NCBI GenBank assembly: GCA_010093995.1
Contig: ML992503.1
Span: forward strand, 2,033,956 to 2,053,955
Direction of reading: 5' to 3'
From: Elsinoe ampelina
Lineage: Eukaryota
DNA length: 20,000 bases
Part shown: positions 1 through 20,000 of the stretch, one piece after another
Layout of the letters: the number at the start of each line of letters is the position of its first letter
Position numbering within the stretch: position 1 is the first letter of the stretch
The notes under the pieces: generated by a model
Told to the model about the DNA's origin: nothing
What the model saw: the letters and a program-made list of their open reading frames with translations, nothing else
Database searches by the model: none
Program-made: the position numbers and the translations under genes

Positions 1-651
1 GCACCCAGCCTTGAATACTTACCGAGGTGAAGGAAAAGAAGATCGTGCCGGAGCTTGTAGATCATCGCTGAGGATACGTTCCAGCACACGATGCCACGTG
101 CAGCTTTTACCTCCGTAGTAAGAAGGTTGTCCGCAAGTTTCATCGTGCTCTCTGTGGACTATAGACCTCCCGGTGACGATCAATGTATGCCGGGCATCGA
201 TGGTCTCTCACGTTTGAGTAGTATCCGTGGAAGTTCCTCCCGAGGGTGGATGGAAAAGCTTCGCGGCCAAATCGGTGCAGCCTTGAGCTTTCCGCTTCTC
301 GATCATCAACGTCGACACGCCACGGCGCTTTGTATATCTCGTCGCAAGCACTCGAGCTGCAGGCAGTGATGAGGTTGCAGGCCCATGGCTATGTGGAGTC
401 ACTTGACGAAATGATCAGGCATTCGCCCGCAAATGACCGTTGCCGCCTGAACGAAGCGTCCAAGCTCGCGCCACAGCGGATGGAGCTCAAGGCGGCAAGA
501 CATGTCTGAGCTCCTTGATTAACAACTATAAATGCGAGGAGTTAGACTTCCACATCGTTATAGCTCTCACAGTGCTGGTCATATTCCAAGATTACACCGT
601 CTGCGCGCGTACTCACTCACTGGGCAGCCCAAGCCCTCATCTATCGCCGCC

Positions 652-2716
652 ATGTCTGCGCAACAAAGCGTCCAGCGACCTGGGATGGGACTGGACATCG
701 ATCACTACCAGAAGCATCCTCGCGATCTGGAAGAGGGTGGGCCTCATGCGGTTTTCAACCACGGATGGTCGAACCCTTGTGTGCTACTGCGGGAGAAACG
801 ATTGGTCGAAGCCATTGATCAATTGAGTGCAAGTGGAGAGAATGTAGTGCAGTTTGGCGCCCAGACTGACATCCCTAGGATAAGCCAGACTGGAGACGCA
901 AGGTGTTCGATGAGGAGATCACATCGAAATGGAGGCGTGAGGTGGTGAGCAACGCTGAGCCGGGATTCTCGGACGCCATGTTCGACTTTGTGAGTGATAG
1001 ACGACAGACTCCTTGCACTGTTTCTGGTCTGACTATTGATAGTGTCTCGCCGAGCTCCAGGACAAGGCAAAGCAGAATGAAGACACAGGTATCGCCACCA
1101 CGTACGAGACCGGGCCAGTCGTCGCAAAATCAGACTCCATTGTGCCAGAGGACGACCGTAAGCTACTGGTGGATGCGGTTGCCAGATTACTCGAGGATGT
1201 GCCAGACCGGCACAAAGACTGGCACCCCGGCTACAATGACCAAGTGCTGGATTTGGTACACCCGTCTCTCTTCCCATTGGTGTATGGGAGAACCAGAGTG
1301 CTCACGAACGAGACCATCGGAGTAGAGGATGCTCTCCAACACATCGGACACGGAGTGGTGGCCAGTCTTCCGCCCAATGACTCGACCGACAGCGACGAAG
1401 TCTTCTACAATCGCCGATTCGGCAGTCTATGGTCTTATCAGTTTCAATGGCTGCCCTCGGAAGTGTCTTTTACAGATAATGGGGTCAAGCTTGACAGCTA
1501 CATCAACAATTTGCATCCTCAGCATCACCGAGCATTGTATCCGATCATTGAGAAGATGCTGGGATTCGCAATTCCACTTTGGGATGCGGTCTTTGCTCGG
1601 GTGAAGCAGGACGAAACGGTGCTGCGATTTGAAGATCGAAAAGCAGAATATGAGTATTTCGAAGGTACTGGTTTCGACGAATGGAGTGCTCGGAGACGTG
1701 CTGAGCGTAGAGCAAGGGCTACTGATACTGCAGACAATGTCAATGAAGAAGACGACCCGGAAGCAGGAATATCGACAGACAGTCCGGTCGAGCTTGACTC
1801 GGAGGAGGAACAGGATGAAGAAGACGAATTCAATGATTTTGTGTTCGACTCTGATCACGAAACAGAATGGCCACGTCGCAGGAGAAGGCTCATACCACCC
1901 GAGCCAATGCCATACGACCTGTTCAAAGCCCGCCTGCCAGAACGTCACCATCCACTGCTCAAAGAAGCATACGGACAGGAAGGACTTCAAGTCATCGTCA
2001 AGCTCGCCAACATACATCTCACGCCGGAGAAACCCAACTACACCGGCGGATCATGGCACATCGAAGGCATGCTCAACGAAATGATCTGCGCAACAGCGCT
2101 CTACTATTACGACTGCAAAAACGTCACAGACAGCTACCTCGCCTTCCGGCAAACCGTCGACTGCGAAGAAATGGAAATGAACGCCCACGGACAAGTGAGC
2201 CCAACCCCCACCATTGGCCCCCACCCCCTTACCACCACTAACCTCCCGCCGCAGGACGACTACTCCGGCCTCGAAACCCTCTTCGGCATCGAGCAAAACG
2301 GCCGCGGCGTGCAAGACGTCGGCCGCACCCTGACGCGCCAAGGCCGCCTCCTCGCCTTCCCCAACATGGTGCAGCACCAGGTATGCCCCTTCTCGCTCGC
2401 GGACAAGACCCGTCCAGGCCACAGGAAGATCCTGGCCTTCTTCCTCGTCAATCCGAAAGCGCGCGTGCTGTCGACGGCCAATGTGCCGCCGCAGAGGAAG
2501 GACTGGTGGGAGGAAGAGCTGCGCAAGACGGGCGGTTTGGATCGTGTGCCGGAGGAGTTGCGGAGGCGTATCGTGGAGGAGGTGGATGATTTTCCGTATG
2601 GGGTGGAGGAGGCAAAGAGGATTAGGGAGAGGTTGATGGAGGAGAGGAAGTCGTATAATGTTTACGCGGATGAGCAGGTTATTTGTGAGAGGGAGTTTTT
2701 CTTTTGTGAGCACTGA
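652..2716 (+). CDS. DUF4246 family protein, ~633 aa; exons 652-828, 879-989, 1043-2194, 2255-2716
   Basis: Spliced translation MSAQQSVQRPG...AIDQLS|DKPDWRRKVFDEEITSKWRRE...MFDF|CLAELQDKAK...DWHPGYNDQVLDLVHPSLFPLVYGRT...FQWLPSEV...SYINNLHP...LQVIVKLANIHLTPEKPNYTGGSWHIEG...GRLLAFPNMVQHQVCPFSLADKTRPGHRKILAFFLVNP...FFFCEH matches recalled DUF4246 motifs. Introns: 829-878 (GC..AG), 990-1042 (GTGAGT..CTGAC..TAG), 2195-2254 (GTGAGC..CTAAC..CAG, in frame). Confidence 0.9.
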
Positions 2717-2855
2717 GGAGGAGGGGAGTGGAGGGGCGTGCTTGTATCATAGGGGTACATAAACTAGAGTATGTCTTTGAAGATGAGCGTATATGGCAGA
2801 CATGGACGCTGGCTACTCCAAGGTGGTGAACATTGTATGGGGTGGACTGCGCGGC

Positions 2856-3989
2856 TCATTTGGTCGGCTCTTTGACGGCTTCAAGATACCTTGTAATGTA
2901 CTCGATTTCTCCGGTGATAGGATTCATGACCGTAGCGTAGTGAGTCGTCTCATTCGTGGTAGGCCAGTCATTGACCCAGGTGACCAGCTGGCGACTTGTT
3001 GCGTATGGTTGGATATCAGTGCGCCCAGCTTTCTGATGCGTGGCGGCAACCTTGTTCCACTTGCCTTCTATGCACTGGAGTCTGTCTTGTGAGTCCTCAA
3101 TTAGATCTTGCATTCCGAGCAAGGGAAGCTTGGAGAGGTCTATGTCTTGGTTGCCTTTTGTGGTGACGTCGTGGTTGGTGATTGTCACGAATGAGGTGGA
3201 CGAGTTGACTGTAGCCGTGAGGTGATCCTTTTCAAATACGACTGCTCGTTGGCCGTCGCTAAAGGTCAAGTAAGCTGCTGTTGAAGGGGTAGATGGGAGT
3301 GTACTCTCGAGGTCGTCAAGTGTCGGAATCTTGCCGGAAGGCAGAAGGAAAGACCGCAAGGATGAAGCGATTGAAGGTCGGAGTCCTAAGAGTACTGCAA
3401 GACGGTGAAGGTTGAAACGGATGTTGGATGGTAGGGAGTGGCTGTCGTTGTGGTAAGGTCTAAAGTTGAGAGACATGCTCAGACCTTTCCTCAATCCAGT
3501 CAAAGTGCCTACAAACCCAGCATAGGTGATCGAGCGAGCAATGACTGCGCCGTGTGGCTTATTGACGAATTCGAGCTGCACAACCACCTTCCGCAGGGGA
3601 TCCATCTCCCAGTCGAGTGTGCGGAAGTGCAGCATTTGCGTGTCTGGGCTCTTGCTGTCCATGCGAACTCGAGCGGCACCGCTAGTGCAACCCATCAGAA
3701 GGTCTAGCAACGTGTTGAAGCATACCAAAAGGTACATGTCTACACCACTGGCTTTGCTAATACCCCGAATCTCTTCGGTCTGCTCTTTGTCATGCAATCT
3801 ACGCAGTAGCAAGCGGGCCAGTCGGGTAGTGAGACCGAGTGGAAGACCCATCTGTCTGACAATTTCTTCGAAGAGTGGTGTCAAGTGACATATTTCGTGG
3901 CGAAAGTCCTCGATTACCTCGTTGTATCGCTCGAATGGCGGTCGAGACAGATCAATTGTGTAGACCGGTACGGTGGAAGATGGAGCCAT
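2856..3989 (-). CDS. Acid ceramidase / N-acylethanolamine acid amidase (NAAA)-like Ntn-hydrolase, 377 aa, intronless
   Basis: N-terminal 'PVYTIDLSRPPFERY..' and 'EEIRGIS' segments, catalytic-Cys motif 'LLMGCTSG', 'LHFRTLDW' and 'ITYAGFVGTLTGLRKGLSMSLNFR', all typical of fungal NAAA/acid ceramidase-like proteins. No obvious signal peptide. Confidence 0.88.
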   Translation of the reverse strand: MAPSSTVPVYTIDLSRPPFERYNEVIEDFRHEICHLTPLFEEIVRQMGLPLGLTTRLARLLLRRLHDKEQTEEIRGISKASGVDMYLLVCFNTLLDLLMGCTSGAARVRMDSKSPDTQMLHFRTLDWEMDPLRKVVVQLEFVNKPHGAVIARSITYAGFVGTLTGLRKGLSMSLNFRPYHNDSHSLPSNIRFNLHRLAVLLGLRPSIASSLRSFLLPSGKIPTLDDLESTLPSTPSTAAYLTFSDGQRAVVFEKDHLTATVNSSTSFVTITNHDVTTKGNQDIDLSKLPLLGMQDLIEDSQDRLQCIEGKWNKVAATHQKAGRTDIQPYATSRQLVTWVNDWPTTNETTHYATVMNPITGEIEYITRYLEAVKEPTK

Positions 3990-4517
3990 GGTCGATCCGG
4001 CAAAGGATCCGGTATGTCACGAAGACCTCAGCACGTCCACTGTTAGGGCGCTATGCTCGCATGATCACTCCGAAGAGCCGACCATGACAACAATGAGCTT
4101 CAGGTGCAGCTTGAGCAGAGAGCGTCGTCAATTTTCCGTCAAGCTTTTCCAGAACGTGGAATTGACTCAGTTGGGCTCGCGTGGTCGTACCTGGGTATCT
4201 AGCGTGTGGTCCTCGCCACCTCCCTATGCCGTGCGCAAGGAGATCTCCGGGCTGGTGGCGGAGGAGAAATTAATGCCAAGGAACGGAAGAGCCAGTTTAG
4301 TCTTCCGACATCGGCCGCGAAAGTCGTTGGTGAGTGAATTTACTCACATTTTGCACGTCGAGAGCGCGTTCAGGCCGCCATCAGGCCAAGCGACGACCCA
4401 TCCAGACCCGTAACAGGCAGGAGTAGTGTCTCAAACTGGCTCCATGTAGCGCGACTTTCCTCTTTGCCAAGCGTGCCAACATGCTGCTCCGGGTCCCTGA
4501 TTGATTAGATTAGACTG

Positions 4518-4526
4518 ATCTGATAA
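4518..4526 (+). promoter_or_regulatory. SreA/SRE iron-responsive GATA repressor site (ATCTGATAA)
   Basis: Exact match to the ATCWGATAA consensus of Aspergillus SreA-type factors, ~500 bp upstream of a siderophore transporter ATG. Confidence 0.75.
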
Positions 4527-4921
4527 ATTTGCACCTCAAGTGGAGATTAAGCTTTTGATGCTAGCAATCTAGGGGTCCTGTCGCATTGGAAATGATCAAA
4601 CAATACCGGAATCATCTCTCGCATTTACTTTGCATGACAATATCGCCGGGGGACATACAAATTGGGATTCCTGCTACAGGATCGATGGCGAAGTCTTAAG
4701 AGTGAGGCATTGCCATCCAGTACGATGGAAGGCCGACAGAAGTTCGCGGGTGGCCATTTGGATCGTCCACACCGCTCGGCTCGGTCTATCACTGACGATC
4801 TGTATGATCCTGTGGTCTTGGTAACGGGCAGCCACATGCTTGACCAGAAAACTCGGTCCAGTACCATTGAAATGTCAGAACCCAACTCGAAGTATGCGCC
4901 ATTTCGTTGGGCCTTGTCGTG

Positions 4922-4927
4922 TATAAA
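4922..4927 (+). promoter_or_regulatory. Putative TATA box of the siderophore transporter
   Basis: TATAAA 100 bp upstream of ATG 5022, followed by a pyrimidine-rich leader. Confidence 0.5.
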
Positions 4928-5021
4928 GAGATCTTTGGGTCCTCATCTGATCTTCAATCAAACATTCATCACTACTTCCGTACCTCTGCTACGTACGTCT
5001 TGCGAGTGAAAAGTCATTGTC

Positions 5022-6854
5022 ATGTGGGACCTCAAAGCTAGACTCTGGGATAGCGGTGCCTATGAGGATGACGACTCACACACAACTGAGCAGGTCTCTA
5101 CTCCTGTTGGTAACGAAAAGACATCTGCAGCAGCAGGGTCGAGAGATTTGAGCGACAGCGAAAGCTTCGACAGCGAGCTCCAGGATGGTGTCAAGGAGAT
5201 CGAGGCCTTGACTTCGGCATGGGATAAGAAGTCCTTGATGATTGCTTTCCTCTTGTAAGTCTCCGGAGGTCCCAACATGGCAAGGATACTAACTTGCGCC
5301 AGTGTCTACATCATCTACGTTGTCGACTCGCTTCAACAACAGATGGCTACAGTCTTCACTCCATACGTCACAAGCTCCTTTTCCTTGCACTCCCTCACAG
5401 CGACCACGGGCATCCTCTCGAACTTGATCGGAGGTCTAGCTCGACTTCCTCTCGCCAAAATCCTGGATGTCTGGGGCCGGCGAGAGGGCTTCGCAACTAT
5501 GGTTTTCTGCCTCACCATTGGACTGATCATGATGGCTGCCACGAACAGCGTCGAGATGTACTGCGCAGCTCAGATCTTCTATTGGGTCGGCTACACTGGC
5601 ATCACCTATTGCCTGGCTGTCTTTGTCAGCGATGTCACTTCTCTGAAGAATCGTGGACTGGTGTTTGGTATCACTTCCACACCATACATCTTCACTACTT
5701 GGGCGGGTGGTCCTGCAGCCAACAATTTCGTCACCGGTCCCGGATGGCGATGGGGCTTCGGCACTTTTGCCATTGTTACTCCCATCATGTGTCTGCCAAT
5801 CTTCTGGGTCTTCTGGCTGAACAAGAAGAAGGCAAAGAGCATGGGTATCCTCAAGGAGAGACCAAAGTCCGGCCGCACAACTTTGCAGTCCATCAAGCAT
5901 TACTTCATCGAGCTTGATATCCTCGGTCTGGTCCTGATTTGTAGTGGACTCGCTCTGTTCTTGCTGCCATTCAGCTTGTACACCTACCAGACTCAGCAGT
6001 GGCGTTCGCCCATGATCATCTGTATGTTGGTCTTTGGTATCATCCTGCTAGTTGTCTTCGGACTTTACGAAAAGTTCCTTGCGCCCAAGAGCTTCCTTCC
6101 AATCGACCTTCTCTTCGATCGCACCGTCTTCGGCTCTTGCGTCTACGGTGCCCTGGCTTTCGTCAGCTTCTACATCTGGAATAGCTACTTCTACTCCTTC
6201 TTGATCGTCGTCAATGGAGAGTCCATCACAAACGCCAGCTACATCAGGAACATCTACAGTATCGGATCTTGCTTCTGGGCCGTGATCGTTGGTCTATTGA
6301 TCAAAGTGACTGGCCGATTCAAGGCGCTCGCCCTCTTCGTGGGCGTTCCGCTCAGCGTGCTGGGTGTCGCTCTCATGGTCGCATTCCGTCGTCCAGACGT
6401 GAATATCGGCTACATCGTAATGTGCCAGATCTTCATAGCGTTCGGCGGTGGAACTACTGTCATCTGTCAACAAATTGCGATCATGGCGGCCACGACGCAT
6501 CAGAACATCGCCGTAGCTTTGGCAATCCAGTATGCTTTCGCCAGTGTCGGTGGCGCTATCGGCTCTAGCATCTCTGCCGCAGTGTGGACCGGCGTCTTTC
6601 CCCAGCGACTACAGACCTACCTGCCTCCGGAAAGCCAGGGTAATTTTACTCAGATCTACGGTGACATGACTGTCCAGTCGTCGTATGCTATCGGCAGTCC
6701 AACCAGAGACGCCATCAGCAGAGCGTATGGCGATGCCCAGCACTACATGCTCATAGCTGCCTCCTGCTTTTTGGCTTTTGGCTGGTTCTTTGTGCTGATC
6801 TGGAAGGACATTGGCGTCAAGAGGAACAAGCAAGTCAAAGGACTGGTCGTCTAG
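5022..6854 (+). CDS. mirB: MFS siderophore-iron transporter (SIT/ARN family, MirB-like), ~594 aa; exons 5022-5254, 5303-6854
   Basis: 'QDGVKEIEALTSAWDKKSL', 'PYVTSSFSLHSL', 'LPLAKILDVWGRREG', 'SDVTSLKNRG', 'WRWGFG', 'IYGDMTVQSSYAIGSPTRDAISRAYGDAQ' and the C-terminal 'KQVKGLV'; many transmembrane segments. Intron 5255-5302 (GTAAGT..CTAAC..CAG) joins the two ORFs in frame. Confidence 0.92.
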
Positions 6855-7559
6855 CCCCCGGATGTTTTCGTCGTTCCGACTCATCGTGAACAGTAGCAAT
6901 ATGCATATCAATGTACGGATTACTCAGCGGAGAATAGGAGCGAACCAGAACAAATGCCTTCTGAGCCCCAACAGCTTCGGCGTTCCCGGGGCCGTGCCCG
7001 CCCTCCTCGAAGTTTGCCCTGCCCCCGAATCTCCACCACATCCTCAACAGCTTCTTTTCAAAAGACCGCCTTCAAGGCGGAGACATCGCTGTTGCTGAAG
7101 GGCCGACTGCCCGACAGCAGACTCAAGTCTTCCCATTGGCATGCGCTCTTCTTGCTCTTCTGCAGCATGGGCTTCTCAGCAGTGTCGATTAGACTTGTAT
7201 CGTTACGGACAACTCCGCAAATCACAAGCCCTAATCCAGGTTTGCCCTCAATACATTATGAATGAAACTCTGGAACTTTCATGCCCAGATTCTCCAATCC
7301 CTTCATCTTAACGTCATTATTCTCAAAGCACATGTCTCAGATCCCTGGTCCCCGTTGTTTACGCTTCAGGACGTTGCCAAGTCTATCCTCGACGTTGAGA
7401 TATCCATTGGTCTCGCCCTGAGCGTCGTCACGGTTCGTGTTTTACAGCTGCGTCCTTTTCTTCAAGTTCGCCTCAATTTTTGACTTGGTAGTCAGGCCTC
7501 CATGTACGCCATTGCCGGACGCTGGCTGGCGACGCAGCGACACATCTCTGGTAGAGGCC

Positions 7560-9801
7560 ATGCTGCAGCTATGGACGACATGTCTCGCCCTGGTGTCAGT
7601 GGTTGGCTGCTCCATTCGTGAGTCGGCGGGTGATTCAATACTTGACAATAGGGGTTGTTGACTGACTATCACTAGTGCCTGACATGATGGGAAATCTATC
7701 AAGAACGTATAGTCCGCCTCCGCTCGGTACGGGCATGCGACGATTCCCCAAAACAGGTTCAGGAAATGATTACGCGAGCTCATGCCAGTCCCTGCAGCAC
7801 TCATACACACTAGCGAGCAGTTCTTGGAACAAGGCTCATGCCTGGGTGACTAAACAAACGGATTACTTCGGTGGACAATCATGGTCTGTCGTCACGGATT
7901 ACCTCGGGGCAACCACACTGTGTGACGGCCATCCTCGTGTGCCAAAGTGGCCTGCAACACCTATCAGGACTCGCACCACTACGTTCAATGCTGGCCAGGG
8001 GCCTACATCTACCTCGATTGAACGACAGACGTATGGCTGGGACTTTCCAGATCCCGTACCAACATGTAGCATCAAGCCGAAAGACTGCGATCCTCTTTGG
8101 GCGGCGTATAGCACTTCTCTCTCATCGTACCTGGTGATGAATGCCACCAGGACTGTCAAGCCAGGCTCCGAGATCACCCCTCCGCCATTGACTCCTCCAT
8201 GTATGAATCGGACCGAGGCATCCTCTTGGTACGAGCTCACCAAATCAATGTACGGATGTGGTGACTGCACCATTTTCGGACACGATGTTCGATTGCTCTT
8301 CTTTCCAGTGCCGACCACTGTATCACGGGATATGTGCGCCAGTACGCCGATAGCACAGATGACGTACTTCTCCATCAACGACGATGCTCTAGATGTCTAC
8401 GCAGGCAAATCGTACGGTCAAAGACCAGCACCCCCCGGAGCCGTGCTTGCTACTGTTGATCATCACACCCTAACCTCTGGCACAGCCTACATCTCGATTG
8501 GAAAAGTCTATGCCCAAGACAGGTGTTCGAGAGATGTCGGCACGACTGTGAAGGATGTCATCATTGCAATGCACTCGGAGTCCATCCTCAGCCTGCGCTA
8601 TGCCCAAGGCCATTTCCAGTACTTTGGGAGCTCATCAACCCAAACTGGTTATCCAATGTCATATGCCGACTTCAACCACCCCATTCCCTGGTCGGCATGG
8701 AACGGTATGGCTTGGTGTCGGTATCCGAACTGGGGTGGCCGATGTGATGTGATCTACGAAGAGCAATATCGCCCACAGCTCGCGATCCCAGGCGCGATCC
8801 GTCAACTGAACTCTCGATGGTCCACTTGCCAGAATTGGTACGGTGGGCTGTATGACCCTCCGGTGACACTGCAGACCGAGCAGACATTTGCCGTTCCCAC
8901 CTTCTCGGCGAGCGTCACTTCGGCCCACGTCTTGGCTACGACAACAGCGGAACCTGCTTCGACGGTGCAAAGTCAGCCTGCCTCCACTGGACATGCCGAG
9001 ATATCAGAGTCGCCTGTTGTGGAACGACCAAGTGGTACCAGGCTGGTCGGTCCAGGAGCGACGAGTTCGCCCGTCGTGGCAGGGCCAAGTGGGACGCAAT
9101 TAGTCGTCCCAGGAGCGACAGAGTCACCGGTAGTCCAGCAACCCGGTGGGCAAGCTCCTGGTATAGTCACTGACCAAGCGGGCCTCGATATGCCTGGACC
9201 GGTCTTGACCTACCCCACTGTCACGGTGAACGGCAGGGTTTACTCAGTCACTCCCATCGACGACGGAGTCGTACTGGGAACCCACACGCTCATCGCTGGA
9301 AGTCCCGCCATTGATCTAGGCGGGGGTATCACCGCAACCTTCGGACCTCAAGGATTAGTCGTTGGCGGAAGTGGGACGACTCCTGTCCCCAACGGAGCGC
9401 TGGTCACTGTCGGCAGCCAAACCTACTCAGTAGCGTTTGCGACTCACTCAGACGTGGCGAACATCGGGACTATACCCATCAGTCTCAATGGCCCAGCCAT
9501 CACCTTATCGAACGGCATGATCGCCAGTCTCGGACCCTCTGGACTTTACCTGGGTGGACAGACTACCTTCTCAGCTGTACTGTCGGCTGCTCACACACGG
9601 GATTCGACGGACGAATCTGGCGTCGTTTCTGGCTCTGGGACGAGCGTCAAGTCTCTGATCACGGGTACACCTCATTCCAACGCAGCAGGCGGGTCGCCGG
9701 ACGCGCAGGCGACGAGTACGAGTGGCGCTGCGGAAAGGAAAGGCGATGGTATAACCCTGCTGCTGGCTCTGCTGGTGGTCTTGATTGGACTGGTCACTTG
9801 A
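7560..9801 (+). CDS. Secreted, probably GPI-anchored cell-surface protein with Cys-rich N-terminal domain and S/T/G/P-rich repeats, ~727 aa; exons 7560-7617, 7676-9801
   Basis: Signal peptide MLQLWTTCLALVSVVGCSI in exon 1; intron 7618-7675 (GTGAGT..CTGAC..TAG) restores the frame of the 7675-9801 ORF. Cys-rich domain (CTIFGHDVRLLFFP...YRPQLAIP..RWSTC..GLYDPP), an S/T-rich stalk, 'GPAITL..SLGPSGL' type repeats and a hydrophobic C-terminus ITLLLALLVVLIGLVT preceded by small residues. Confidence 0.82.
9007..9150 (+). repeat. Coding tandem repeat, 57-bp (19 aa) unit, ~2.5 copies
   Basis: ESPVVERPSGTRLVGPGAT / SSPVVAGPSGTQLVVPGAT / ESPVVQQPGG starting at 9007, 9064 and 9121. Confidence 0.85.
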
Positions 9802-10778
9802 AAGTAGCGACTGGGTTTCGATCGGATTAGACGAGAAGACAGCCCATCTCTTTCTTCGCCACAAGTTATGGGAGAACAGATTGAACGAGCAAGGGAGGAT
9901 GGCGAGTCCAACAAGCGCAGACCAACATGTTCGGCCGGCACAGTGGTCAGGCCACATGTACAGGCCACAAGAGTTAAACGCACATCGCGTATCAGCACAG
10001 ATGCTGATCCAGCTTGGACTGGAATGTAATATATACGATCTACGAATCACAACTGTACATTAACCACCTCTTTGCCCCCAAGTTTGCTTTGTCTGGGTCG
10101 TGAAATTGTGATCTGGGGTGATTGAGCGAGGGCCGGCGAGAGGGGATTTTCATTGTTGATGAAGAGGGTCGCGCCGCCGATGGACCCATAGGATGTTGTA
10201 TTTTGTTTGGTGTTTCTATTCTCGACGAGCTCAGCGTATAGCCCGCCATCACCGGAGTAATTGATCTCCTGTCAGAAATGAAATGAGTGGCAAGAACTCG
10301 CGGGTTCAGAATCACGCACCTCGAACATGTTCAGGCGAGATGACCTAAGTCAAGACTCTGTGCTAGACCGAGCAGCCCAAACGATGCCAATGCGCTGATT
10401 GACCACATGTTGCGGGAACGAAATCACAAGTGGCTGAGCTGGTACGGGAAATGCTTAAAAAAGACCCACCTCAAGACCTGTCGCTGGCGATCACGATCAC
10501 TATCAGCCGCTCGCCAGCCCATGAGTTGTATAAGAATCTGCTATACCATAGAAGCATCATGACGCCGTCCAGCCAAGCCATGAGAAGCAGAATGTCATGG
10601 AAGGAAGGGCATGGTATAGCAAATTGAGACGGCAAGATCTTTGCCCTCTGCAGGTATTGCGATGTCCATGGTGATGAAAAGAGGGGTATGGCCTCGAAAT
10701 ATGGAGGATGGAAGCGGGAGAGTGTCATGATGTCGTTGAGCAGTCGACAAAGATGCAGGTCGAATAGGACGATCTCAT

Positions 10779-10836
10779 CTCCGCTCACCCCACCGGAGAT
10801 GCCCCCATGGTCGAGGAAGCGGGGTGCCGTGCGGGG
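10779..10836. promoter_or_regulatory. Cluster of five CreA/Cre1 consensus sites (SYGGRG) upstream of the GH5 gene
   Basis: CTCCGC 10779 (rev), CCCCAC 10788 (rev), CCGGAG 10793, GCGGGG 10819 and GCGGGG 10831, about 450 bp upstream of ATG 11278. Confidence 0.45.
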
Positions 10837-11277
10837 GGGTATGTTCTTGTTGAGAAACGATCTTTGCATCTCTCATGAGCAAATGATTTTCGCGTTCGCG
10901 CAACATCAGTGGCAATGGCATCTTCAGCAGAGGTGAGCGGATCACGTGTGCTGTGGTTCCGAAAGCTCAAACAGGCAGACCAGACATGGCAAAGTCATCA
11001 GAAACACTGCTTTTCTCCAGTACAGATTTTGGCATCTCGCCAGATGGTGCGATTACGATGCTCGCCCCTGCCCTGCTACGGTAAGAGTATCCACAAAGCT
11101 TGTCGCATCTTGGTAAAATCTTGTGCACATCAAAGTGTGACCAGCACTGGTTCTACTAAGACCCACAGTCATCCACATCATGCAATGCCGGACTACCGCG
11201 TAACATGGCAATGTTTTCCGGTAAGCTTATTAGAATAATATCCTCCCTGTTCCAAGATTCCATTGTCACCACCAGCT

Positions 11278-12810
11278 ATGCATTCACATCTATACACCTG
11301 GCTTCTTGCCTTGCCTCTAGTACTTTCAGCTCCGTCAGAGCAGCCTAGGAGACCTGAGCGCTGGCATGGAGGTCATCACCGCGGCCATAACATTGATCAC
11401 AAGAACAAGACCATCAGGGCAGATGATTTCGTCACGGTCGACGGTCTTGGTCTAAGGGATGACTCTGGGATTGTCTACCTGACCGGACTCAATTACTGGT
11501 CATGCATGAACTTGGCTGCGGATGAATCCTCGGGAGGGAATTACTCCCGGCTCATCACCGAGCTTGATCAGATGGCTGCTAAGGGTGTCAACCATCTTCG
11601 TTTGATGGCCTCCTCGGAGGGTGCACCCACACCTCAACCTTTCAGGATGAACCCACCACTAATGCAGTCCCCTGGACAGTACAATGAGGATATCTTTGTG
11701 GGTCTCGATCGTTGTCTTCACGAGATGTCGTTACGTGGGATGAGAGCAACCATGACCCTCGCGAATGAGTGGCAATGGAGTGGCGGCTTCGCCCAGTATG
11801 TCTCATGGGCAAACAACGATTCTGCCATCCCTTACCCATCGAGCTGGAATCTCAGCGCTCCGCCTCAACGTGACCCCCCAAACACACGAGGTTGGGGAAA
11901 TTACACGACTGAAGGTGTCGATGCAGCACCGTATGCCAACTTCACTGCTTACGCCAACCTTTTCTACACCAGCGAGCAGTGCCAGAAATGGTACCAGAAC
12001 CACATCGACGCAGTATTGAACCGAATCAACACCATCAACGGTCGTCTTTACAAAGACGATGCTACCGTCATGACATGGCAGCTTGCAAACGAGCCCCAGC
12101 CCGCCGTCGTACCTTCACAATATCTCGGACCGTACAGCCTGGAACTACCTCCCGCCCCAGAAGACGCCATCCTCCCATGGATCGAGAGCACTTCAGCCTA
12201 CATCAAGTCGCGCGCACCTCACCAGCTAGTCAACGTCGGCTTCGAAGCAAAACAAGGCCAATGGTACTTCCAAGCCGTCCACAACTTCTCCACAGTCGAC
12301 TACACCACTTCGCACTGCTGGGTCCAAAACTGGGGCGTGTACGACATGCTCAACTCCAGCGCCGCCAACCTCGAAGCCGCAAAAGACTTTGCCCGCGCGT
12401 TCATCGCCAACACTTCCGCCTGGACGCGAGAGATCGGCAAGCCCATCTTCCTGGAAGAATTCGGCATGGCCCGGGACAATTGGGAGAATGTAGGCGAGGA
12501 GTACCTGTACCTCTCTTCCGCGGGTACGTCGCATAAGGATGAGTATTTCGAGACGATCATCGGTGCTGCGCTGGATGACTTCCAAGCGGATGACGGTGCT
12601 TATGTCGGGACTTGTCCCTGGGCGTACGGAGGGGTCTACAGGCCGGAGACTGAGACGGTGAATGAATTTGGGGAGGTCTGGGCTGGTGATCCACCGCATG
12701 AGGCGCCGGGTTGGTATGATCTGTATGACACCGATGAGGCGATGGATATTGTTCAGCGGCAGCAGGTGGAGGCGGCTGCTTTCATCAATGGACAGTCTGC
12801 AAAGGAGTAG
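11278..12810 (+). CDS. Secreted glycoside hydrolase family 5 (subfamily 7) beta-mannanase/beta-mannosidase, 510 aa, intronless
   Basis: Signal peptide MHSHLYTWLLALPLVLSAP; 'GLNYW', 'GVNHLR', 'GLDRCLHEMSLRGM', 'NEWQWSGGFAQYV', acid/base 'WQLANEP', 'HCWVQNW', nucleophile 'LEEFG' and C-terminal 'GDPPHEAPGWYDLYDTD'. The first ATG is 11278; the ORF track starts at an upstream TTG. Confidence 0.92.
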   Translation: MHSHLYTWLLALPLVLSAPSEQPRRPERWHGGHHRGHNIDHKNKTIRADDFVTVDGLGLRDDSGIVYLTGLNYWSCMNLAADESSGGNYSRLITELDQMAAKGVNHLRLMASSEGAPTPQPFRMNPPLMQSPGQYNEDIFVGLDRCLHEMSLRGMRATMTLANEWQWSGGFAQYVSWANNDSAIPYPSSWNLSAPPQRDPPNTRGWGNYTTEGVDAAPYANFTAYANLFYTSEQCQKWYQNHIDAVLNRINTINGRLYKDDATVMTWQLANEPQPAVVPSQYLGPYSLELPPAPEDAILPWIESTSAYIKSRAPHQLVNVGFEAKQGQWYFQAVHNFSTVDYTTSHCWVQNWGVYDMLNSSAANLEAAKDFARAFIANTSAWTREIGKPIFLEEFGMARDNWENVGEEYLYLSSAGTSHKDEYFETIIGAALDDFQADDGAYVGTCPWAYGGVYRPETETVNEFGEVWAGDPPHEAPGWYDLYDTDEAMDIVQRQQVEAAAFINGQSAKE

Positions 12811-13024
12811 CTCTAGAAATTGACTACAATTGAATGTACTACCAGGTTGCTGTCGTGTAAGAGAATACGGGTACATATTGATGGGATGATGCCTACCAGG
12901 AGTCCTACATGCAGCATGAGACTGACTCTAGCGGGGACATACAAGGGAAAGAGTCCTATACAAGAAAATGGCACAAGCGGGAGGACAAGAACAAAAGAAG
13001 GAACAACGATATACCATTGAAAAA

Positions 13025-14497
13025 TCACCTCCCATCCCCTCTTCCACCTCTACAATCTCCCCACTCCCCCATCCTCCTCTCCACCCTCTCCAAATGCCAC
13101 CCACTCGTCCAAAACTCCGCTCCCTGCTCGCTCGCAATCCCATAAACCAACTCCGTCCCCAGGAAACACCTACCGTCGATCCATCGCCACTGCAAACACT
13201 CGACCTCATGATCGCATGCCTCGGCACAATTCTCCGCACTCTCCACGCTAGCCTTCTGCACGTCATCGTACGAGTCCCACACTGACTCGTTGGCGGAAGC
13301 AAAGTACTGCATGTCTTCGCGCCAATTATACCACTCTTTGCGCGGCGACTGGATGTTCTCGAGGACCAATTCGCGGAAGAGGTCGGACCAGGTGTACGGG
13401 ACGGTCCAGCCGTGCTTGCGGACCCAAGCGGTTTGGAAGCGCCAGAGGTCGTTGATCTGGTAGGCGTCGACGTGGTGCTGCGTCGCCGGGGTCTGGCACC
13501 AGGTTTCGTTGGTGAAGGTGATGGTGTTGAGGGTTTCCATTTGGAGAACGCCGCCTGACTTCTCGACGACGACTCCGGCTTCTTCCATTACGGCTCCGGT
13601 GACAATGTCGCCGCAGCAGCTGGTGGAGGTGTAGTTCTCCCACCGTTGGTCAAAGGCTTCGGCCCCTTCGGTCTCTCGCGCGTGGACAAGTCGCTCCAAT
13701 GCTGGGCGAGACATGACGTAGCCGCTGCCGCCGTGGGCGAAGGTCAGGGTGGAGTTGATGACCGGGAAGACTCGTCCGATGTAGCGCGGTTCACTTGGGT
13801 CCAGGGTCGCTAGCCATGCGATGAGATTGGTCCAGCTGACGGCGGCGTCATCTTCGAGGAAGACAAACCACTCGACGTGGGATGGGGCGAGCGCATGTGC
13901 CAGTAAGGCGATGGGTATATATTTCCATTTGTCCAAGAGCCAGCCGCTAGTGCCATACAGCGTCTCTAATCGTAGGCCACCGGTGCGGTATTTTTCAAGC
14001 ATCCTGTATGTTTCAAAGTCGTCATGCATCTCTTTCCAGCCTCGACTGACATTCTTCAGCACGTCGTGCACAGGATAGCCCGCGAAGATCTCGTCCCGGT
14101 CGGATGAAATGAGGAGCTGATTGGCCGGCGCGCACCTTACGAGGGTGAGCAGATGTGTTGGTAGTAAGTAGTGCATCCTGGATGCTCCCATCTTGAGGCT
14201 GAGCATCAGGTTGCTACCTGACGGAGCTGAAGAGCAAAGGTCATCCTCGCCCAGTCTGGACAGACTGCTAGTCTTCCCTTCACCTATCTCAGAGGTGCCA
14301 GGATCATGGTGGTCCCGCAGGCTGCCATGATTATTACATTGGCTCGAGAGTCCCCGAACACCCGTCCAGTCCAGCGCAAGGTGCATGCGATTGAATAAGA
14401 AGATGCTCAAGATCGATGTGCCCAGAAAGAGGAGAACGAGTTTGCGCTTTGTCGGTGCCGCCGGCGTGGGTGAGCGGGACAGCAATGCAGAGACCAT
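13025..14497 (-). CDS. Glycosyltransferase family 31 (Fringe/core-1 galactosyltransferase-like) type II membrane protein, 490 aa
   Basis: N-terminal TM anchor after KRK; 'GWLLDKWKY', 'WFVFLEDDA' (DxD-like), 'YIG', 'FAHGGSGYVMS', 'CCGD', 'QHHV', and a C-terminal Cys-rich 'CAEAC...CLQWRW..GRC...SGW' module typical of fungal GT31. Confidence 0.88.
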   Translation of the reverse strand: MVSALLSRSPTPAAPTKRKLVLLFLGTSILSIFLFNRMHLALDWTGVRGLSSQCNNHGSLRDHHDPGTSEIGEGKTSSLSRLGEDDLCSSAPSGSNLMLSLKMGASRMHYLLPTHLLTLVRCAPANQLLISSDRDEIFAGYPVHDVLKNVSRGWKEMHDDFETYRMLEKYRTGGLRLETLYGTSGWLLDKWKYIPIALLAHALAPSHVEWFVFLEDDAAVSWTNLIAWLATLDPSEPRYIGRVFPVINSTLTFAHGGSGYVMSRPALERLVHARETEGAEAFDQRWENYTSTSCCGDIVTGAVMEEAGVVVEKSGGVLQMETLNTITFTNETWCQTPATQHHVDAYQINDLWRFQTAWVRKHGWTVPYTWSDLFRELVLENIQSPRKEWYNWREDMQYFASANESVWDSYDDVQKASVESAENCAEACDHEVECLQWRWIDGRCFLGTELVYGIASEQGAEFWTSGWHLERVERRMGEWGDCRGGRGDGR

Positions 14498-15091
14498 GCT
14501 TCTCAGACTAAGGAAATTGACCTGAAGCAGTGGGAAGTCTTGCCGTCTTGCCTGAATAGCTGACCGATCTCCATCGATCGGGCCCCTGTTCGTGCGGCTC
14601 CTATCCTAGCGACCGTTTAAGATGACCCCCTGCCCGTTCGCTCTCGGCCATGCTTGCGCCATAGCGATGCTTCGAACCTTCACGCTATTCACCCTACTCT
14701 TGTTCTACTAGGTTCTCACAAGCAAGTGGTCTTGCCATCGTGTCTGCTGTTGTCTCGCCCATGCCAGACAATGTTGAAGGAGCTGTTCATGAGTAGCGGT
14801 ACTCTTGGTGTTGACATCGGTTCGGCTCGTCTCGGGGTAAAGCGTGTACACGCTGACGCTGACTGCAGATACTTGACTTACAAGGCCGTCCGTGATCGAA
14901 TCTAGAGTGCAAGTTACTATGTGTGATTAATAGTCGTGTAGATGAGTCGAGGTGTAGTTTGGTCAGTCAGGGGATGTAGTGGGACGGATGACTTTCGTAC
15001 CCGAGCTTAGTCCGAGGTACGGTATGTATGTAGGAGTGCTACAACTATCAGGCAACTATACCCCAGCTCCACCACGCTCAGCACCACAATC

Positions 15092-16898
15092 TCAATGAGC
15101 AAATCTAAAATCCAACGTCTTATTTCCCTCATCCTTCGTCGTCTCCCTGTAGACCTCCTTCTCCTCCTTGCTCATCCCCTCCCACACCCTCTCCTTCTGC
15201 CTGTTCCTCCAAACATAGTAACCCTTGGTCCCCACAAACATCACAACAGCCAGAAAATTGATCCCAATCAGCACACTGTTCCCATGATGATAAAGGGGCT
15301 TGTCCTCCGTCCTGTAGATATTACTACTAACGACATTCCCCACCTGCACCATCATGTTGTACACCGCCGCGCTGACCGTGCGCGTCCTCACGCTGCCGGA
15401 GTTACGCGAGGCCCATGCGACCACTATGGCGTGGCAGTACGGGTAGCTGAGCAGTGTGGTGACGAGCGCGTAGGTACCCCAGGCGTCATGCATGACGCCC
15501 TGCCAAAATCGGAGGGCGAGCAAGCAGGGGAGCGTCCAGATGTCTTGGATCATGGCGACTAAGGAGCGTTCGTTGAGGTATTCTGAGAGACGGGTGATGA
15601 GGAGGAGAGTGCAGATCCCGATGGCGGTGGAGGGGACGACGAGGAGGTTGGTGGTGAACTGCGATTGTCAGTGGGGGAATGGCGAGGGCGAGGAGGAATG
15701 GGTTCAAGTACAGCGTTGAAGCCGAGTTGGCGGAGAGTGAGGGTTAAGTAGGCATTGGGAGGGTTCATGGGGATGAAGATGACGAGACCCATGGCGTAGA
15801 TCTGTTTGAATTAGCGGGCTGAGGTAGCATGAGAGGGTGTCACGAGGCTGCTGGGTGCATACCGGCCATAGGTCATAGTCTGTGAGTGCTTTCCATAATC
15901 GTGATGGGGCGATGGCCATTCGGTTGTGCATGTCTCCTTTCGAGGGGTCATCGCGGAGGACACGGTTGACGACTATGCCCACCTCGCGGTCGGTGAACCA
16001 GCCATTGGGTCGGAACCATGCTTTGGTCTGGACTGCGGATGCAGGCATGAGGAAGAAGGATGCGAAGCCGATCAGCAGTGTCATGAGCCCTTCGATGAGG
16101 AACAGCCAGCGCCATCCGGACAGACTGCTAATGCCATCCATATGTAGAAGAGCAAATGCGAGAAGAGACGTGACTAGGCCAGTAACACTAGTTGCGGTCC
16201 AGAAGAAGCTCAGCCTGATCGGCAGTTCTCGGCTCGTGTAGAAGTAACTCAGCCAGAGGATAAGATCCGGTATGAAGCCGCCCATTGAGCGTTAGAGGAT
16301 AACAAAAATTGCTTGGGGAGTTCTCACCTTCAAGTATGCCCAGTAGTGACCTTGTAGCATAGTAACTGTTCACACCGATGAGAGCTGCCTGACTGGCGGC
16401 CACGACGGACCACATGATCATCTGCGTCGGGATCCAGCGGTCTGGTCCCAGCTTCTTCGAAACAAGTTGAGAGGGCACTTCAGCCAGAAGAAACGAGACG
16501 TAGAAGATGGTCCGACCATAGTTGTACTGGTTCGTGGAGAGGTCCAACTGATCAAGCATATCAGCCGATACAGCTTGAGAGAGATTACCGCGGTCCACTT
16601 GGAGTGCGAAGAACATCACGCATGCCCAGGCGCAGACATGCCAGTCCAATCTTCTGACGAGCTTCTTCTCCTCTTGAGTTGTCCATTGCAGTTCTGGGTC
16701 GAACGCATGTCGACACTCGTACTGAGCCTTTTCATAGAGTTGTCTGTAGTGCTGCGCTATCTTCGGATCCAGGAAAGGATTTGCAGCCAGAGCGCCCTCA
16801 GTATGGAGGCTGTCGGTCGATGAGCGGCTGGCCTTGAACAGATCTTTGCTCTCGGGATCTGTACCCTTGAGGGGAGCTGCAACGGTTGCAATTGTCAT
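15092..16898 (-). CDS. MFS transporter, Dal5/allantoate permease family (Soa1/AstA-like putative sulfonate/sulfate transporter), ~548 aa; exons 16898-16328, 16281-15863, 15801-15712, 15658-15092; intron-1 acceptor non-canonical
   Basis: 'YECRHAFDPELQWTTQEEKKLVRRLDW', 'LQVDRGN', 'AEVPSQLVSKKLGPDRWIP', 'GILE|GGFIPDLILWLSYFYTSRELPIRLSFFW', 'GWRWLFLIEG', 'RVLRDDPSKGDMHNR', 'WASRNSGSVRTRTVSAAVYNM' and 'LDFRFAH'. Introns 15802-15862 (GTATGC..CTAAT..CAG) and 15659-15711 (GTACTT..CTGAC..CAG) are canonical. Intron 16282-16327 starts GTGAGA and has CTAAC but ends in TGG. Confidence 0.88.
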
Positions 16899-17039
16899 CT
16901 TACCAAGACAAAAGAAGTAGAGTCGTATAAACACAGGAGGCTTCCATGGAGTACCTTTTCTCTGCTCCTTGTATGTTCATAACCCAACACCAACTCTGCG
17001 TAACGTGTGCATCTTCGGATTAAGGATGCCGAAAAGATA

Positions 17040-17049
17040 ATGTCGCCAT
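17040..17049. promoter_or_regulatory. Possible CYS-3/MetR (sulfur-regulation bZIP) site
   Basis: ATGTCGCCAT is one mismatch from the palindrome ATGGCGCCAT, ~145 bp upstream of the Soa1-like transporter ATG, and is immediately preceded by GATAA. Confidence 0.35.
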
Positions 17050-17477
17050 ACTGAATGAGGCAGCTCCCAGTTCATGGAGAGTCTCGAAGATATAATGTGC
17101 CAAGCACGCCATCCTCGTGCATTTGACGAGCCGAGACGCGAAGACTGTGATTTGCTGCAGTTGCTGAACAGGCCTCAAGGTGTGGGACTAGAATGATGGG
17201 CTCGTACGTAGAGCTCTAGTACAGCAACCCCATGCGGTACTATGCTGGCGGCTCAAGGTCTTCTCGAGAGCCCCCTGAGAAGGTGAAAATTGCGTCGATG
17301 GAGCTGTGAGGAGGTGATAGCACGCAGGCGAAGCCAGGATGACGTGCTCGAATGGTCCACATTGCTGCAGCGATAGCTCCATCAGAGGCACTTCTGTGCG
17401 TGAAGTAGCACCCTGCCGTATGTAACCCTTGACGGACTCGTAGTGGATAGTAGATGCGTCAAAATTAAGCCTTGACA

Positions 17478-17619
17478 TGTTGTAACTAGCAAATCGGATC
17501 GAGAGACGTGTGTTTCATTCAGAGAGTTACAATAACCGATTTATCTACTGTGCGTGCGCTGACTTATCAGTACCAGTTCTTTAGTACCAGAGAAGCTATA
17601 CTAGCCTTCTATTATAACA
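17478..17619 (-). repeat. 3' LTR (142 bp) of the Copia element
   Basis: Bounded by TGTTGTAA...TTATAACA (TG..CA ends, 8-bp inverted termini with one RIP-type mismatch) and directly abutting the polypurine tract. Candidate 5-bp TSD TGACA at 17473-17477. Confidence 0.72.
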
Positions 17620-17628
17620 CTCCCCCTC
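17620..17628 (-). other. Polypurine tract (PPT)
   Basis: Minus strand reads GAGGGGGAG|TGTTATAA, the classic Copia PPT-LTR junction. Confidence 0.8.
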
Positions 17629-17979
17629 TAGTATAGATTGCTAAAGCTAGAGAACTGTCCTGTCATATATAAGTGAAGTAATTAGCTTATCACTTTATCT
17701 CTTTATAATTGCTTATAATTATTAGTGTTAGCTAATTATTAGTAAGAATTCACTATTAGTTTAGCTTATAATTGCTAGCAATAATAGTAACTATTAACAA
17801 TAGCTAGGCAGCTATTATTTATGTAAATAGACTAGCTTATAAGTCTTAATTAAAGAGATATAAGTATCTAACTAGCCTCTTTATAATTTCTCTTTTCTTT
17901 ATTATACTTATAGTAGTAGCCTTTTCTTTTATATAACACTTTTACCTTCTTACTATACTATATTAATAACACTTATAAC

Positions 17980-19089
17980 ATAAGCGCTATAGTATAGTAA
18001 TAGCTAGGCATTAACAGCATTACTGCTAGTGCTAGTGCTCTAAGTAGTCTACTAGGTAGCGGAGGTAGTAGTAAGAAGAGAAATCCTCTATTAAGGTTGC
18101 CTAGTACTTCTAATATTGATTATAATACTACTATAAGACTAATTACTCGTCTTAATACTCTTAGTAAGTAGCTATAAAGTATTAATAGCATAAGCTAACA
18201 TTAATAGCCTAATTAACTTAGACTTTAACTTAATAGTTAGCCGACATAATCTAGAATACTCTCCTTAGGCTTAGAATAATTAGTTATTACAACTATACTA
18301 ACTTATATCCTATCTAGAGGTCTATAGCAGTCTAGGCCTTTAGTACCTATAGTATACACCTAGTAGTTACTAATCCTATTCTAGTTAAGGATCTAACTAA
18401 GCAAGTTAACCTTACTAGATCTACTAACTACTCTACTGCTTTAATAGCTTCTAGTGCTACTAGTAGAGTAGTCTACTATAGCACTAATCGCTATACTAAG
18501 TGTTAGGGATCTAACCCTAGCAATAATTAGAGCAAGGGTAGGGGTAGCAAGTTTAGTAAGTATATTACTTTACCTAGTTAGCTTAATAAGGCCTACACTT
18601 GCTATGCTTATAGTAACTAATATACTAGATGTTCCTTAGCTAACTATACTCTAACTCTAAGGCCTATTAGCTCTCCTAAACCTATAAGGACCCCGAGTAG
18701 CTTAAGGGTTATTACCTAGCCTATTCTATATAGCCTAATACACCTACTAATAGAGCTCCTAAGGTCTATCTCTTTTAGTAGTGCTTTACCTTAGAGGTTC
18801 TTACTAAGGGCCTATATACTAGAGGCATTATTAGGTGTAGTTAACACCTTAATAACTTATACTAACTCTTGCTACTTTATAGTAGTCCCTATAAACTTTA
18901 TAGATCCTACTAACCTAACCGCTACTAAGGTTTATAACTTAGCTACTATAGTAATAAACTATATAGTAGAGCTTACAAGAATTATAGCTACTAGCTACCT
19001 TAGTTAGCTTTCTTCTATTTATGTCTTTATACTAGGCCTAGTACTAACAAGGCATAGTAGGTCTAGATCTAACACTTCTATAAGGTCTA
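17980..19089 (+). pseudogene. RIP-mutated spliced ORF with DUF3716-like Cys motif, antisense within the Copia 3' region; exons 17980-18163, 18208->19089
   Basis: ATA (RIP'd ATG) at 17980 downstream of TATATAA (~17930); intron 18164-18207 GTAAGT..GCTAAC..TAG; one reading frame continues to the gap with only TAG/TAA stops (RIP products of CAG/CAA/TGG). At 18489-18638 it reads RYTKC*...GRGSKFSKYI...NKAYTCYAY..*YTRCSL, which de-RIPs to CxxC..GxxFxxC..ACxxCxY..CS. Confidence 0.65.
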
Positions 19090-19430
19090 NNNNNNNNNNN
19101 NNNNNNNNNNNNNNNNNNNNNNNNNNNNNNNNNNNNNNNNNNNNNNNNNNNNNNNNNNNNNNNNNNNNNNNNNNNNNNNNNNNNNNNNNNNNNNNNNNNN
19201 NNNNNNNNNNNNNNNNNNNNNNNNNNNNNNNNNNNNNNNNNNNNNNNNNNNNNNNNNNNNNNNNNNNNNNNNNNNNNNNNNNNNNNNNNNNNNNNNNNNN
19301 NNNNNNNNNNNNNNNNNNNNNNNNNNNNNNNNNNNNNNNNNNNNNNNNNNNNNNNNNNNNNNNNNNNNNNNNNNNNNNNNNNNNNNNNNNNNNNNNNNNN
19401 NNNNNNNNNNNNNNNNNNNNNNNNNNNNNN
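19090..19430. other. Assembly gap (341 N)
   Basis: Run of N. Confidence 1.
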
Positions 19431-20000
19431 ATTAGCTAATTACTAAGTTGTATTAATATACTTAAGCTTAATTGCTTTAAGTTTATACTACTCTCTATAG
19501 TAATAATTCCTTAAATTGATATACTTAGATCTCCTTAAATTAGTATAATCTCTTACAAGTTTAATAGCTAACTTATTATTAATAAAGACTATAGTTAAGC
19601 TAAGGTAAATATTAGTAAGTAGCCTAAGTTTAATAATAAGATTTCTTAACTAATTAATCTCTCTATAGGTCTTAGTAAGGGTAAGGTATTTAGCCTTAGT
19701 ACTTAATAACACAATAATCTTCTATAGCTTTAACTTCTAAATAACTAGTATACTAAGTATGTAAATAATAGTACTAGATATAGATCTTGTAGTTAATCTA
19801 TCTCTAGCAAAGTCTAAGTTAGAGTAGGCCTTAATTATATCAACTAATAGTCTATTAGTCTTCTTAAAGGTAAGGCCCTTTATAATAGTCCTATTAATAT
19901 ACCTCTAGATCTACTTAGCTATAACTACATAAGCTATAGTTAGATTCTAAAGGAACCTAGCTAGGTAATTAGTAGTATAGCTAATATTAGGCCTTATGTT
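19431..20000 (-). pseudogene. pol: Copia pol remnant: RT C-terminus and RNase H (RIP-mutated)
   Basis: Single minus frame: NIRPNISYTTNYLARFL*N...AK*I*RYINRT...AYSNLDFARDRLTTRSISS...VI*KLKL*KIIVLLSTKAKY...FINNKLAIK...RRSKYINLRNYY.RE*...YINTT**LAN. This corresponds to TRPDIAY / YSDSDFAGD / WKSK-Q..VxLSSTEAEY / DNKSAI / RSKHID / QLAD after reversing G>A and C>T changes. Confidence 0.93.

Follow-up and report, generated by a model that had tools for sequence, protein, structure and literature searches.

A probable antisense gene between pol and the 3' long terminal repeat of a mutationally inactivated Ty1/Copia-type element in Elsinoe ampelina

Some long terminal repeat (LTR) retrotransposons carry additional open reading frames (ORFs), and those that run antisense and are located between pol and the 3' LTR have been termed aORF-3R (PMC7264820). 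The examples named there are gene23 of maize Grande and frames of rice RIRE2, Silene Retand and Phaseolus PvRetro13, as well as brtn of the Botrytis/Sclerotinia element Boty, an antisense gene that is also cited in PMC8365987 and PMC4227169. According to the same source, aORF-3R occur in the majority of a family's copies, have their own promoters where these have been studied, and are of unknown function; capture and nested insertion are among the origins listed for such antisense frames (PMC7264820). Here, we describe the end of a 20,000-nt stretch of the Elsinoe ampelina genome (contig ML992503.1, positions 2,033,956 to 2,053,955; the whole stretch is referred to below as the window), and conclude that it probably represents the 3' part of a Ty1/Copia-type family that was killed by repeat-induced point mutation (RIP) and that carries an antisense gene of the aORF-3R type between pol and the polypurine tract (PPT). 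The initial annotation of the window had proposed an antisense accessory gene in a Copia element at this place. The core of that proposal, a once-coding frame on the strand opposite to pol and between pol and the PPT, held in our analysis, while the details of the gene model and the family of the product stayed unproven.

The locus shares with aORF-3R its position, its antisense orientation, its copy number at the level of the whole element, and the implication of a promoter of its own. As antisense extra ORFs are established in plants and in Boty (PMC7264820), the architecture is less novel than the initial annotation implied, even though its statement that canonical Copia elements carry only gag-pol is correct. 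Apparently, this is a known class of gene in a new carrier: the carrier here is a fungal element of the Copia type, whereas Boty, the sole fungal example named, is of the Gypsy type and has a chromodomain (PMC4227169). No fungal Copia element with an antisense gene was found in open-access text. The survey of Copia elements in filamentous ascomycetes by Donnart et al. (2017) speaks of 'a large single ORF', and the word 'antisense' does not occur in it (PMC5445492). Like the elements described there, the one in the window has a TRPDI-type start and an AD.. end of RNase H, short LTRs and a PPT; unlike those single-ORF elements, it has a stretch of about 1.7 kb separating pol from the PPT. If its total size were near 7 kb, it would fall in the upper part of the range given for fungal GalEa elements (5428-7018 bp), but membership in fungal GalEa was rejected, as GalEa has CQPEA where the TRPDI type stands here (PMC5445492).

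The second group of systems with which the locus can be compared comprises fungal proteins with the domain DUF3716. In Zymoseptoria tritici, two DUF3716 genes, REP9-1 and REP9-2, ride in the 7.9-kb IS3EU-type class II transposon REP9 (PMC8232023), and PSC58, a DUF3716 protein of Fusarium graminearum, is called an orthologue of a Neurospora telomere-sequence-binding protein (PMC10776026). As in the DUF3716 cases, we are dealing here with a short, putatively Cys-rich stretch in a protein that is a few hundred residues long and is borne by a fungal transposon. Unlike in those cases, there is no match to the DUF3716 profile PF12511, and five of the eight cysteines of the pattern are Tyr in this copy.

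The features on which the assignment of the element and of the antisense gene depends are the following:

17478-17619, minus strand: 3' LTR of 142 bp, of which the plus strand reads TGTTGTAAC...TATTATAACA
17620-17629, minus strand: PPT, reading AGAGGGGGAG on the minus strand, immediately upstream of the TG of the LTR (direct reading)
18255-19089, plus strand: core of the antisense gene, 278 codons, ending at a run of N (frame openness, shuffled sequences, phase of TA dinucleotides)
19090-19430, no strand: run of 341 N, covering the 3' end of the antisense gene and the end of pol (direct reading)
19431-20000, minus strand: RIP-degraded Copia-type pol end, i.e., the end of the reverse transcriptase and RNase H (frame openness, and motifs by direct reading)

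The plus-strand frame once coded for protein, on the strand opposite to pol. Between 18255 and 19088 it is interrupted by nine stops in 278 codons, whereas the five alternative frames hold 40, 49, 27, 28, and 61 stops, and in none of 1000 dinucleotide-preserving shuffles did any of the six frames contain nine stops or fewer (mean minimum 25.6, lowest 13). When the frame is followed from 18210, it contains 14 stops in 293 codons, as opposed to 30-62 in the other five, and 5 of these 14 are within the first 15 codons. The stops in 18255-19088 are eight TAG and one TAA, with no TGA, and all of them can be derived from CAR or TGG codons via RIP. Additionally, the TA dinucleotides are distributed over the three codon phases in a similar way in the antisense gene (32/52/88) and in pol (25/29/70), and the density of stops in the antisense frame is on par with that in the recognisable pol frame, which is no cleaner. 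A continuous frame of about 350 codons had been annotated; our results support a core of 278, and the larger figure appears generous. Coding capacity antisense to gag-pol is thus located between the end of pol and the PPT and 3' LTR, with the N run separating it from pol. As RNase H ends near 19431, and the antisense gene enters the N run from the other side, the two genes converge within the N stretch. The 341-N run sits exactly at the expected ends of both.

The motif at the start of Copia RNase H is TRPDI, and that at its end is ADxxTK (PMC5445492). The pol frame of the window starts with IRPNI, closes with LAN beside the N run, and is the only open frame of the minus strand. To turn the codons expected for TRPDI and AD.. 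into the ATA and AAT codons of IRPNI and LAN, only CpA-to-TpA and TpG-to-TpA changes, the signature of RIP, are required. The RNase H motifs that characterise Ty1/Copia were recognised in this way, by direct reading alone. The remainder of the frame presumably resembles the Copia RNase H consensus, altered by changes of D to N, E to K, H to Y, and Q to stop. In 19431-20000 this frame has 9 stops in 190 codons, as compared with 16-51 in the other five, and its openness was matched, in any frame, by 1 of 1000 dinucleotide shuffles. The pol fragment did not match any Pfam family at E<=1, and did not yield a hit at E<=1 among 518 candidates of a word-indexed protein search extended to longer lengths, nor a hit at E<=10 among PDB sequences, nor a confirmed one among 109 pattern matches to viral contigs. 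The detectable similarity of this fragment to Copia proteins is erased by RIP. This serves as a control: sequence searches are essentially powerless on DNA so mutated.

The edges of the element were examined with the use of contigs of four public runs, aligned to 17400-19089 at a likeness of at least 80%. Runs X1 and X2, both of DNA from a single sample, may derive from the source of the window itself; run X3 is labelled organism B, and run X7 can be regarded as RNA only by guess. On the minus strand, the LTR opens with TGTTATAA... and closes with ...TTACAACA at 17478, and hence has TG and CA ends. Its outer edge is marked by five contigs in X1 and five in X2 in which the sequences before 17478 are mutually unlike (agreement 0.57 and 0.53, respectively). 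Other copies end with ...TTACAACA and pass, from the inner end of the LTR, into unique DNA, with loose ends behind 17605 in X2 and X7. A contig of X7 (17575-17659) spans the junction of the LTR, the PPT, and the internal part. Taken together, these data define an LTR of the TG...CA type, as expected for Ty1/Copia, that is directly preceded by a PPT and the edges of which are backed by the diverging flanks of other copies. They also confirm the PPT that had been annotated near 17620, which lies at 17620-17629 and abuts the LTR. The orientation of the PPT and LTR is that of pol, i.e., minus.

The depth of X7 contigs was 806-1363 in the LTR bins, as compared with 37 in the adjoining unique DNA, and several contigs of this run fuse the LTR to differing unique sequences (17478-17659). 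These joins could be explained by LTR-containing transcripts, by read-through, or by DNA in the library. The contigs of X7 cover the LTR and almost nothing of 17685-19089, and are uninformative on the expression of intact copies.

The antisense segment proved to be repeated together with the rest of the element. A total of 3413 pieces of X1 and 1446 pieces of X2 could be placed. In X1, the summed contig depth, which is not a copy number and gives only rough ratios, was 163 in the unique flank (17400-17456), jumped at 17478 to 149,098-242,028 in the three LTR bins, and remained at 41,032-128,024 in all 26 bins of 17628-19089 (mean about 86,000). Thus, the internal part is at several hundred times the depth of the flank, and the LTR at about 2.2 times the internal mean, a ratio to be expected if each element has a pair of LTRs and a number of solo LTRs exist besides. 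Since the depth is high over the whole of 17478-19089, the antisense segment was multiplied with the LTR as one unit, and by this rough measure it is present in all or most copies. The copies differ almost exclusively by C/T and G/A: 61 of the 62 variant places in X1 are transitions (A>G 13, C>T 20, G>A 17, T>C 11), and the remaining one is A>T. The claim of the initial annotation that the gene was repeated along with its element is therefore borne out, and the stretch up to 19089 is RIP-mutated as a repeat. In X1 and X2 this repeat family ranks with the most abundant sequences, and its contigs are mostly 100-140 nt long. One contig in each of these two runs is devoid of 95 spacer bases in 17701-17797, which represents a deletion variant among the copies.

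The composition of the DNA is in accordance with RIP. The sequence at 17478-20000 forms an AT-rich, RIP-like block, with a GC content of 0.31-0.34 in its N-free stretches versus 0.51-0.58 in 1-17400. The TpA/ApT index is 2.28 in 17620-19089 versus 0.59 in 1-17400, and the (CpA+TpG)/(ApC+GpT) index is 0.33 versus 1.25 in the same two regions. In positions 1-17400 the DNA, that of a filamentous fungus, is ordinary and carries genes. Of the pieces of X1 placed on the window, 1110 were at least 99% alike to it, 1434 were 95-99% alike, 801 were 90-95% alike, and 68 were below 90%. We take this high likeness to mean that, in every copy, the sites preferred by RIP are nearly saturated. As the RIP changes are mostly common to the copies, a consensus built from this single genome would recover little.

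The Cys spacing that the initial annotation had described in the product of the antisense gene is present in a Cys- and Tyr-rich stretch at about 18474-18635, if Tyr is taken as former Cys. The sites of the pattern are Cys at 18501, 18600, and 18630, and Tyr at 18492, 18561, 18594, 18603, and 18609, and three of the four surviving Cys codons of the frame, as counted from 18210, fall in codons 98-141. A TGY-to-TAY change is a TpG-to-TpA change, so Cys codons are prime targets of RIP. At 18562, G instead of A was found in 38% of the depth in X1 (16 contigs) and in 43% in X2 (15 contigs), converting TAT to TGT. Thus, for the Tyr of the GxxFxxC part of the pattern, about 40% of the depth of the copies shows Cys instead, and one of the five Tyr-from-Cys sites is backed by other copies among the 40 variant rows listed of 82. 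The frequency of Tyr is alike in the antisense frame (23/278) and in the RIP-mutated pol frame (16/190).

The spacing of the Cys stretch appears similar to that of the DUF3716 family. The PF12511 profile (59 positions, cut-off 22 bits) gave no match in a phage record and 14 control genomes. It was not matched by the frame with its stops as X, nor, once TAG and Tyr codons had both been masked as X, by two pieces free of stops, and the power of this comparison was low, with Tyr at five of the eight pattern cysteines and four stops in the stretch. No Pfam family was matched by any of nine frames with stops as X. A match of the C-terminal piece of the Tyr-masked frame to Pex24p (E 0.73) was regarded as noise, and the one match obtained with phmmer against 1.84 billion representatives (E 3.2e-07), to a 1446-aa protein with internal repeats, was judged spurious. 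The word-indexed protein search with the antisense gene gave 1001 candidates of near lengths, none at E<=10, and 29 of shorter lengths, none at E<=1. PDB sequences gave no match at E<=10. Pattern matches to viral contigs (30) and, with the protein as query, to metagenome contigs (322) yielded none that was confirmed, and a degenerate PPT/LTR pattern did not match any metagenome contig. As the pol control failed too, these blank searches neither support nor refute DUF3716. The chances that the product belonged to the DUF3716 family seem to us nearly balanced, judging from the spacing of its residues. A Zn2Cys6 binuclear cluster and the HHCC finger of integrases were considered for the Cys stretch as well and were rejected by eye, as the spacing and order of the residues did not fit.

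Upstream of the core, the gene may be completed by the following parts:

17630-17979, plus strand: AT-rich spacer, the presumed promoter and leader of the antisense gene, with TATATAA at 17930-17936 as a putative promoter motif
17980-18163, plus strand: candidate first exon, open for 55 codons (18006-18170), Ser/Gly-rich and with a KKR stretch
18164-18207, plus strand: candidate spliceosomal intron of 44 nt, with GTAAGT at 18164, CTAAC at 18193, and TAG at 18205-18207

No coding signal was found in any frame of the spacer, the openness of which was equalled by 924 of 1000 shuffles. The only ATG on the plus strand of 17630-18500 is at 17821. Four in-frame ATA codons are within 18276-18444, and ATG-to-ATA is a RIP change (TpG to TpA). 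The candidate intron is the single strict match to GTAAGT..CTAAC..YAG on both strands of the two RIP blocks. The minus strand of 17980-18163 contains a 46-codon open stretch (1 stop in 61 codons) and is locally less TA-rich; this open stretch is probably a shadow of plus-strand coding or of low complexity.

Several observations weigh against the gene, or against parts of the model described above. The TATATAA motif that had been taken for a promoter is indeed at 17930, but it is within chance expectation: the plus strand of the 1470-nt block has two copies of TATATAA and seven of TATAWA. In the candidate first exon the minus frame is more open than the plus frame (one versus three stops). The ATA annotated as a mutated start codon at 17980 is within chance as well; as ATG is a target of RIP, and nearly none is left, the start codon cannot be placed in such DNA. 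Of the canonical 44-bp intron proposed at 18164-18207 the motifs are present, but the strict pattern appeared in 12.5% of 2000 shuffles on the plus strand and in 26% on either strand, and five stops in 15 codons follow the proposed acceptor. By direct reading, an alternative acceptor at 18238-18240 would stay in frame and drop four of those five stops, so the candidate intron may have other borders. The clustering of Cys and Tyr (11 in 53 codons) was equalled in 605 of 5000 codon permutations, and thus is not significant, and no protein, profile, viral, or metagenome search returned a homologue of the antisense gene. Moreover, no read sequence links the gene to pol, from which it is separated by 341 N, and their join is indirect if this is a scaffold gap. 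Finally, contigs of X3 match the LTR and 17643-17912 at about 84-97%, with 2-21 differing letters per 60-145 aligned over 17490-17912, and none was placed beyond 17912. One X3 contig of 433 letters matches 17768-17912 with its last 145 letters and is then unlike the window (255 loose letters), as if the two sequences parted there. A related element in organism B may lack this gene or have a different 3' module, and may thus differ at the very point at which the upstream region of the gene starts, or it may simply be more diverged.

The break at 17912 bears on the explanation that the antisense segment is a passenger, i.e., a host gene or another mobile element, whole or in part, such as a DUF3716 gene of an IS3EU-type DNA transposon, which inserted into the 3' region of one master Copia element, or was transduced into it, and was amplified without serving it. 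We consider this unlikely, even though it is in keeping with the fact that the sequence of organism B no longer matches past that point, with the documented transport of DUF3716 genes as cargo of a class II transposon (PMC8232023), and with capture and nested insertion being named as possible origins of antisense ORFs (PMC7264820). The depth profile is blind to the difference between an accessory gene and a hitch-hiker, as a passenger fixed in a master copy before the burst would give an identical profile. However, no terminal repeats bounding the segment were found, only repeats of 14-34 nt with 67-93% identity, such as low-complexity RIP DNA would be expected to contain. Additionally, in position and in antisense orientation it agrees with the recurrent aORF-3R class, and the very high copy number was reached with the segment aboard.

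The N run at 19090-19430 leaves room for an assembly artefact, in which the block of LTR, PPT, and gene and the pol end would come from different copies or elements joined over the run, and the gene would belong to a non-autonomous LTR-bounded element or to some other repeat. The abundance of the repeat and the 100-140 nt length of most of its contigs make scaffolding risky. Nevertheless, the orientation of the PPT and LTR agrees with that of pol, RNase H stops where the N run starts, which is the place at which pol should end, and the depth is uniform up to 19089, which makes this explanation quite improbable. Still harder to credit is the explanation that there was no gene at all, and that the open plus frame arose from RIP by chance or through composition, or shadows a coding frame of the minus strand such as a sense env-like ORF. 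RIP DNA is low in complexity, and it is the minus frame that is most open in 17980-18163. But the nine stops of the core were not attained in any of the 1000 shuffles, the minus frames have 27, 28, and 61 stops over the same positions, and the phase pattern of TA equals that of the true pol frame.

If an antisense gene of the aORF-3R type in a RIP-dead Copia-type family is accepted, as we prefer, the history of the locus may be pictured as follows. A Ty1/Copia-type family would have risen to a very high copy number, after which RIP would have inactivated all of its copies. The family would have carried, from where pol ends to the PPT, about 1.7 kb beyond a canonical Copia element, most of it being the opposite-strand gene, presumably transcribed from a promoter of its own in the 350 nt beside the PPT and converging with pol. 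As the gene has the orientation opposite to that of the genomic RNA, an intron in it, if there was one, would stay unspliced in that RNA and would be inherited through reverse transcription. The product might have been a small Cys-rich nuclear protein, probably binding zinc and nucleic acid and possibly of the DUF3716 type, that acted in trans on the expression or integration of the element itself. In this genome, the antisense gene is a dead relic. A more far-reaching idea, which we put forward as tentative and doubtful, is that DUF3716-type proteins constitute a recurrent, self-promoted accessory module of both classes of fungal mobile elements, carried by the IS3EU transposon REP9 in Zymoseptoria and here by Copia in antisense orientation with its intron kept through reverse transcription, and that the protein, perhaps a sequence-specific DNA binder as is the relative that binds telomere repeats, aided the rise of the family to hundreds of copies ahead of its inactivation by RIP.

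Should the arrangement be confirmed in intact relatives, antisense accessory genes would be known not just from plant elements and the fungal Gypsy type (Boty) but from fungal Copia as well. The uncharacterised DUF3716 would gain a second independent link to mobile DNA, and a role of this domain in transposon biology, be it in targeting, control of transcription, or evasion of silencing, would become testable. The copy in the window is a RIP relic without a recoverable protein sequence, and its value is that of a pointer toward such relatives.

In the host DNA that precedes the element in the window, the long ORFs at 7684-9801 and 11278-12810 did not match any Pfam family. The other host genes, between 1556 and 16898, were assigned by Pfam to DUF4246, an NAAA-beta-like amidase, two MFS transporters, one of them TRI12-like, and a Fringe-like protein.

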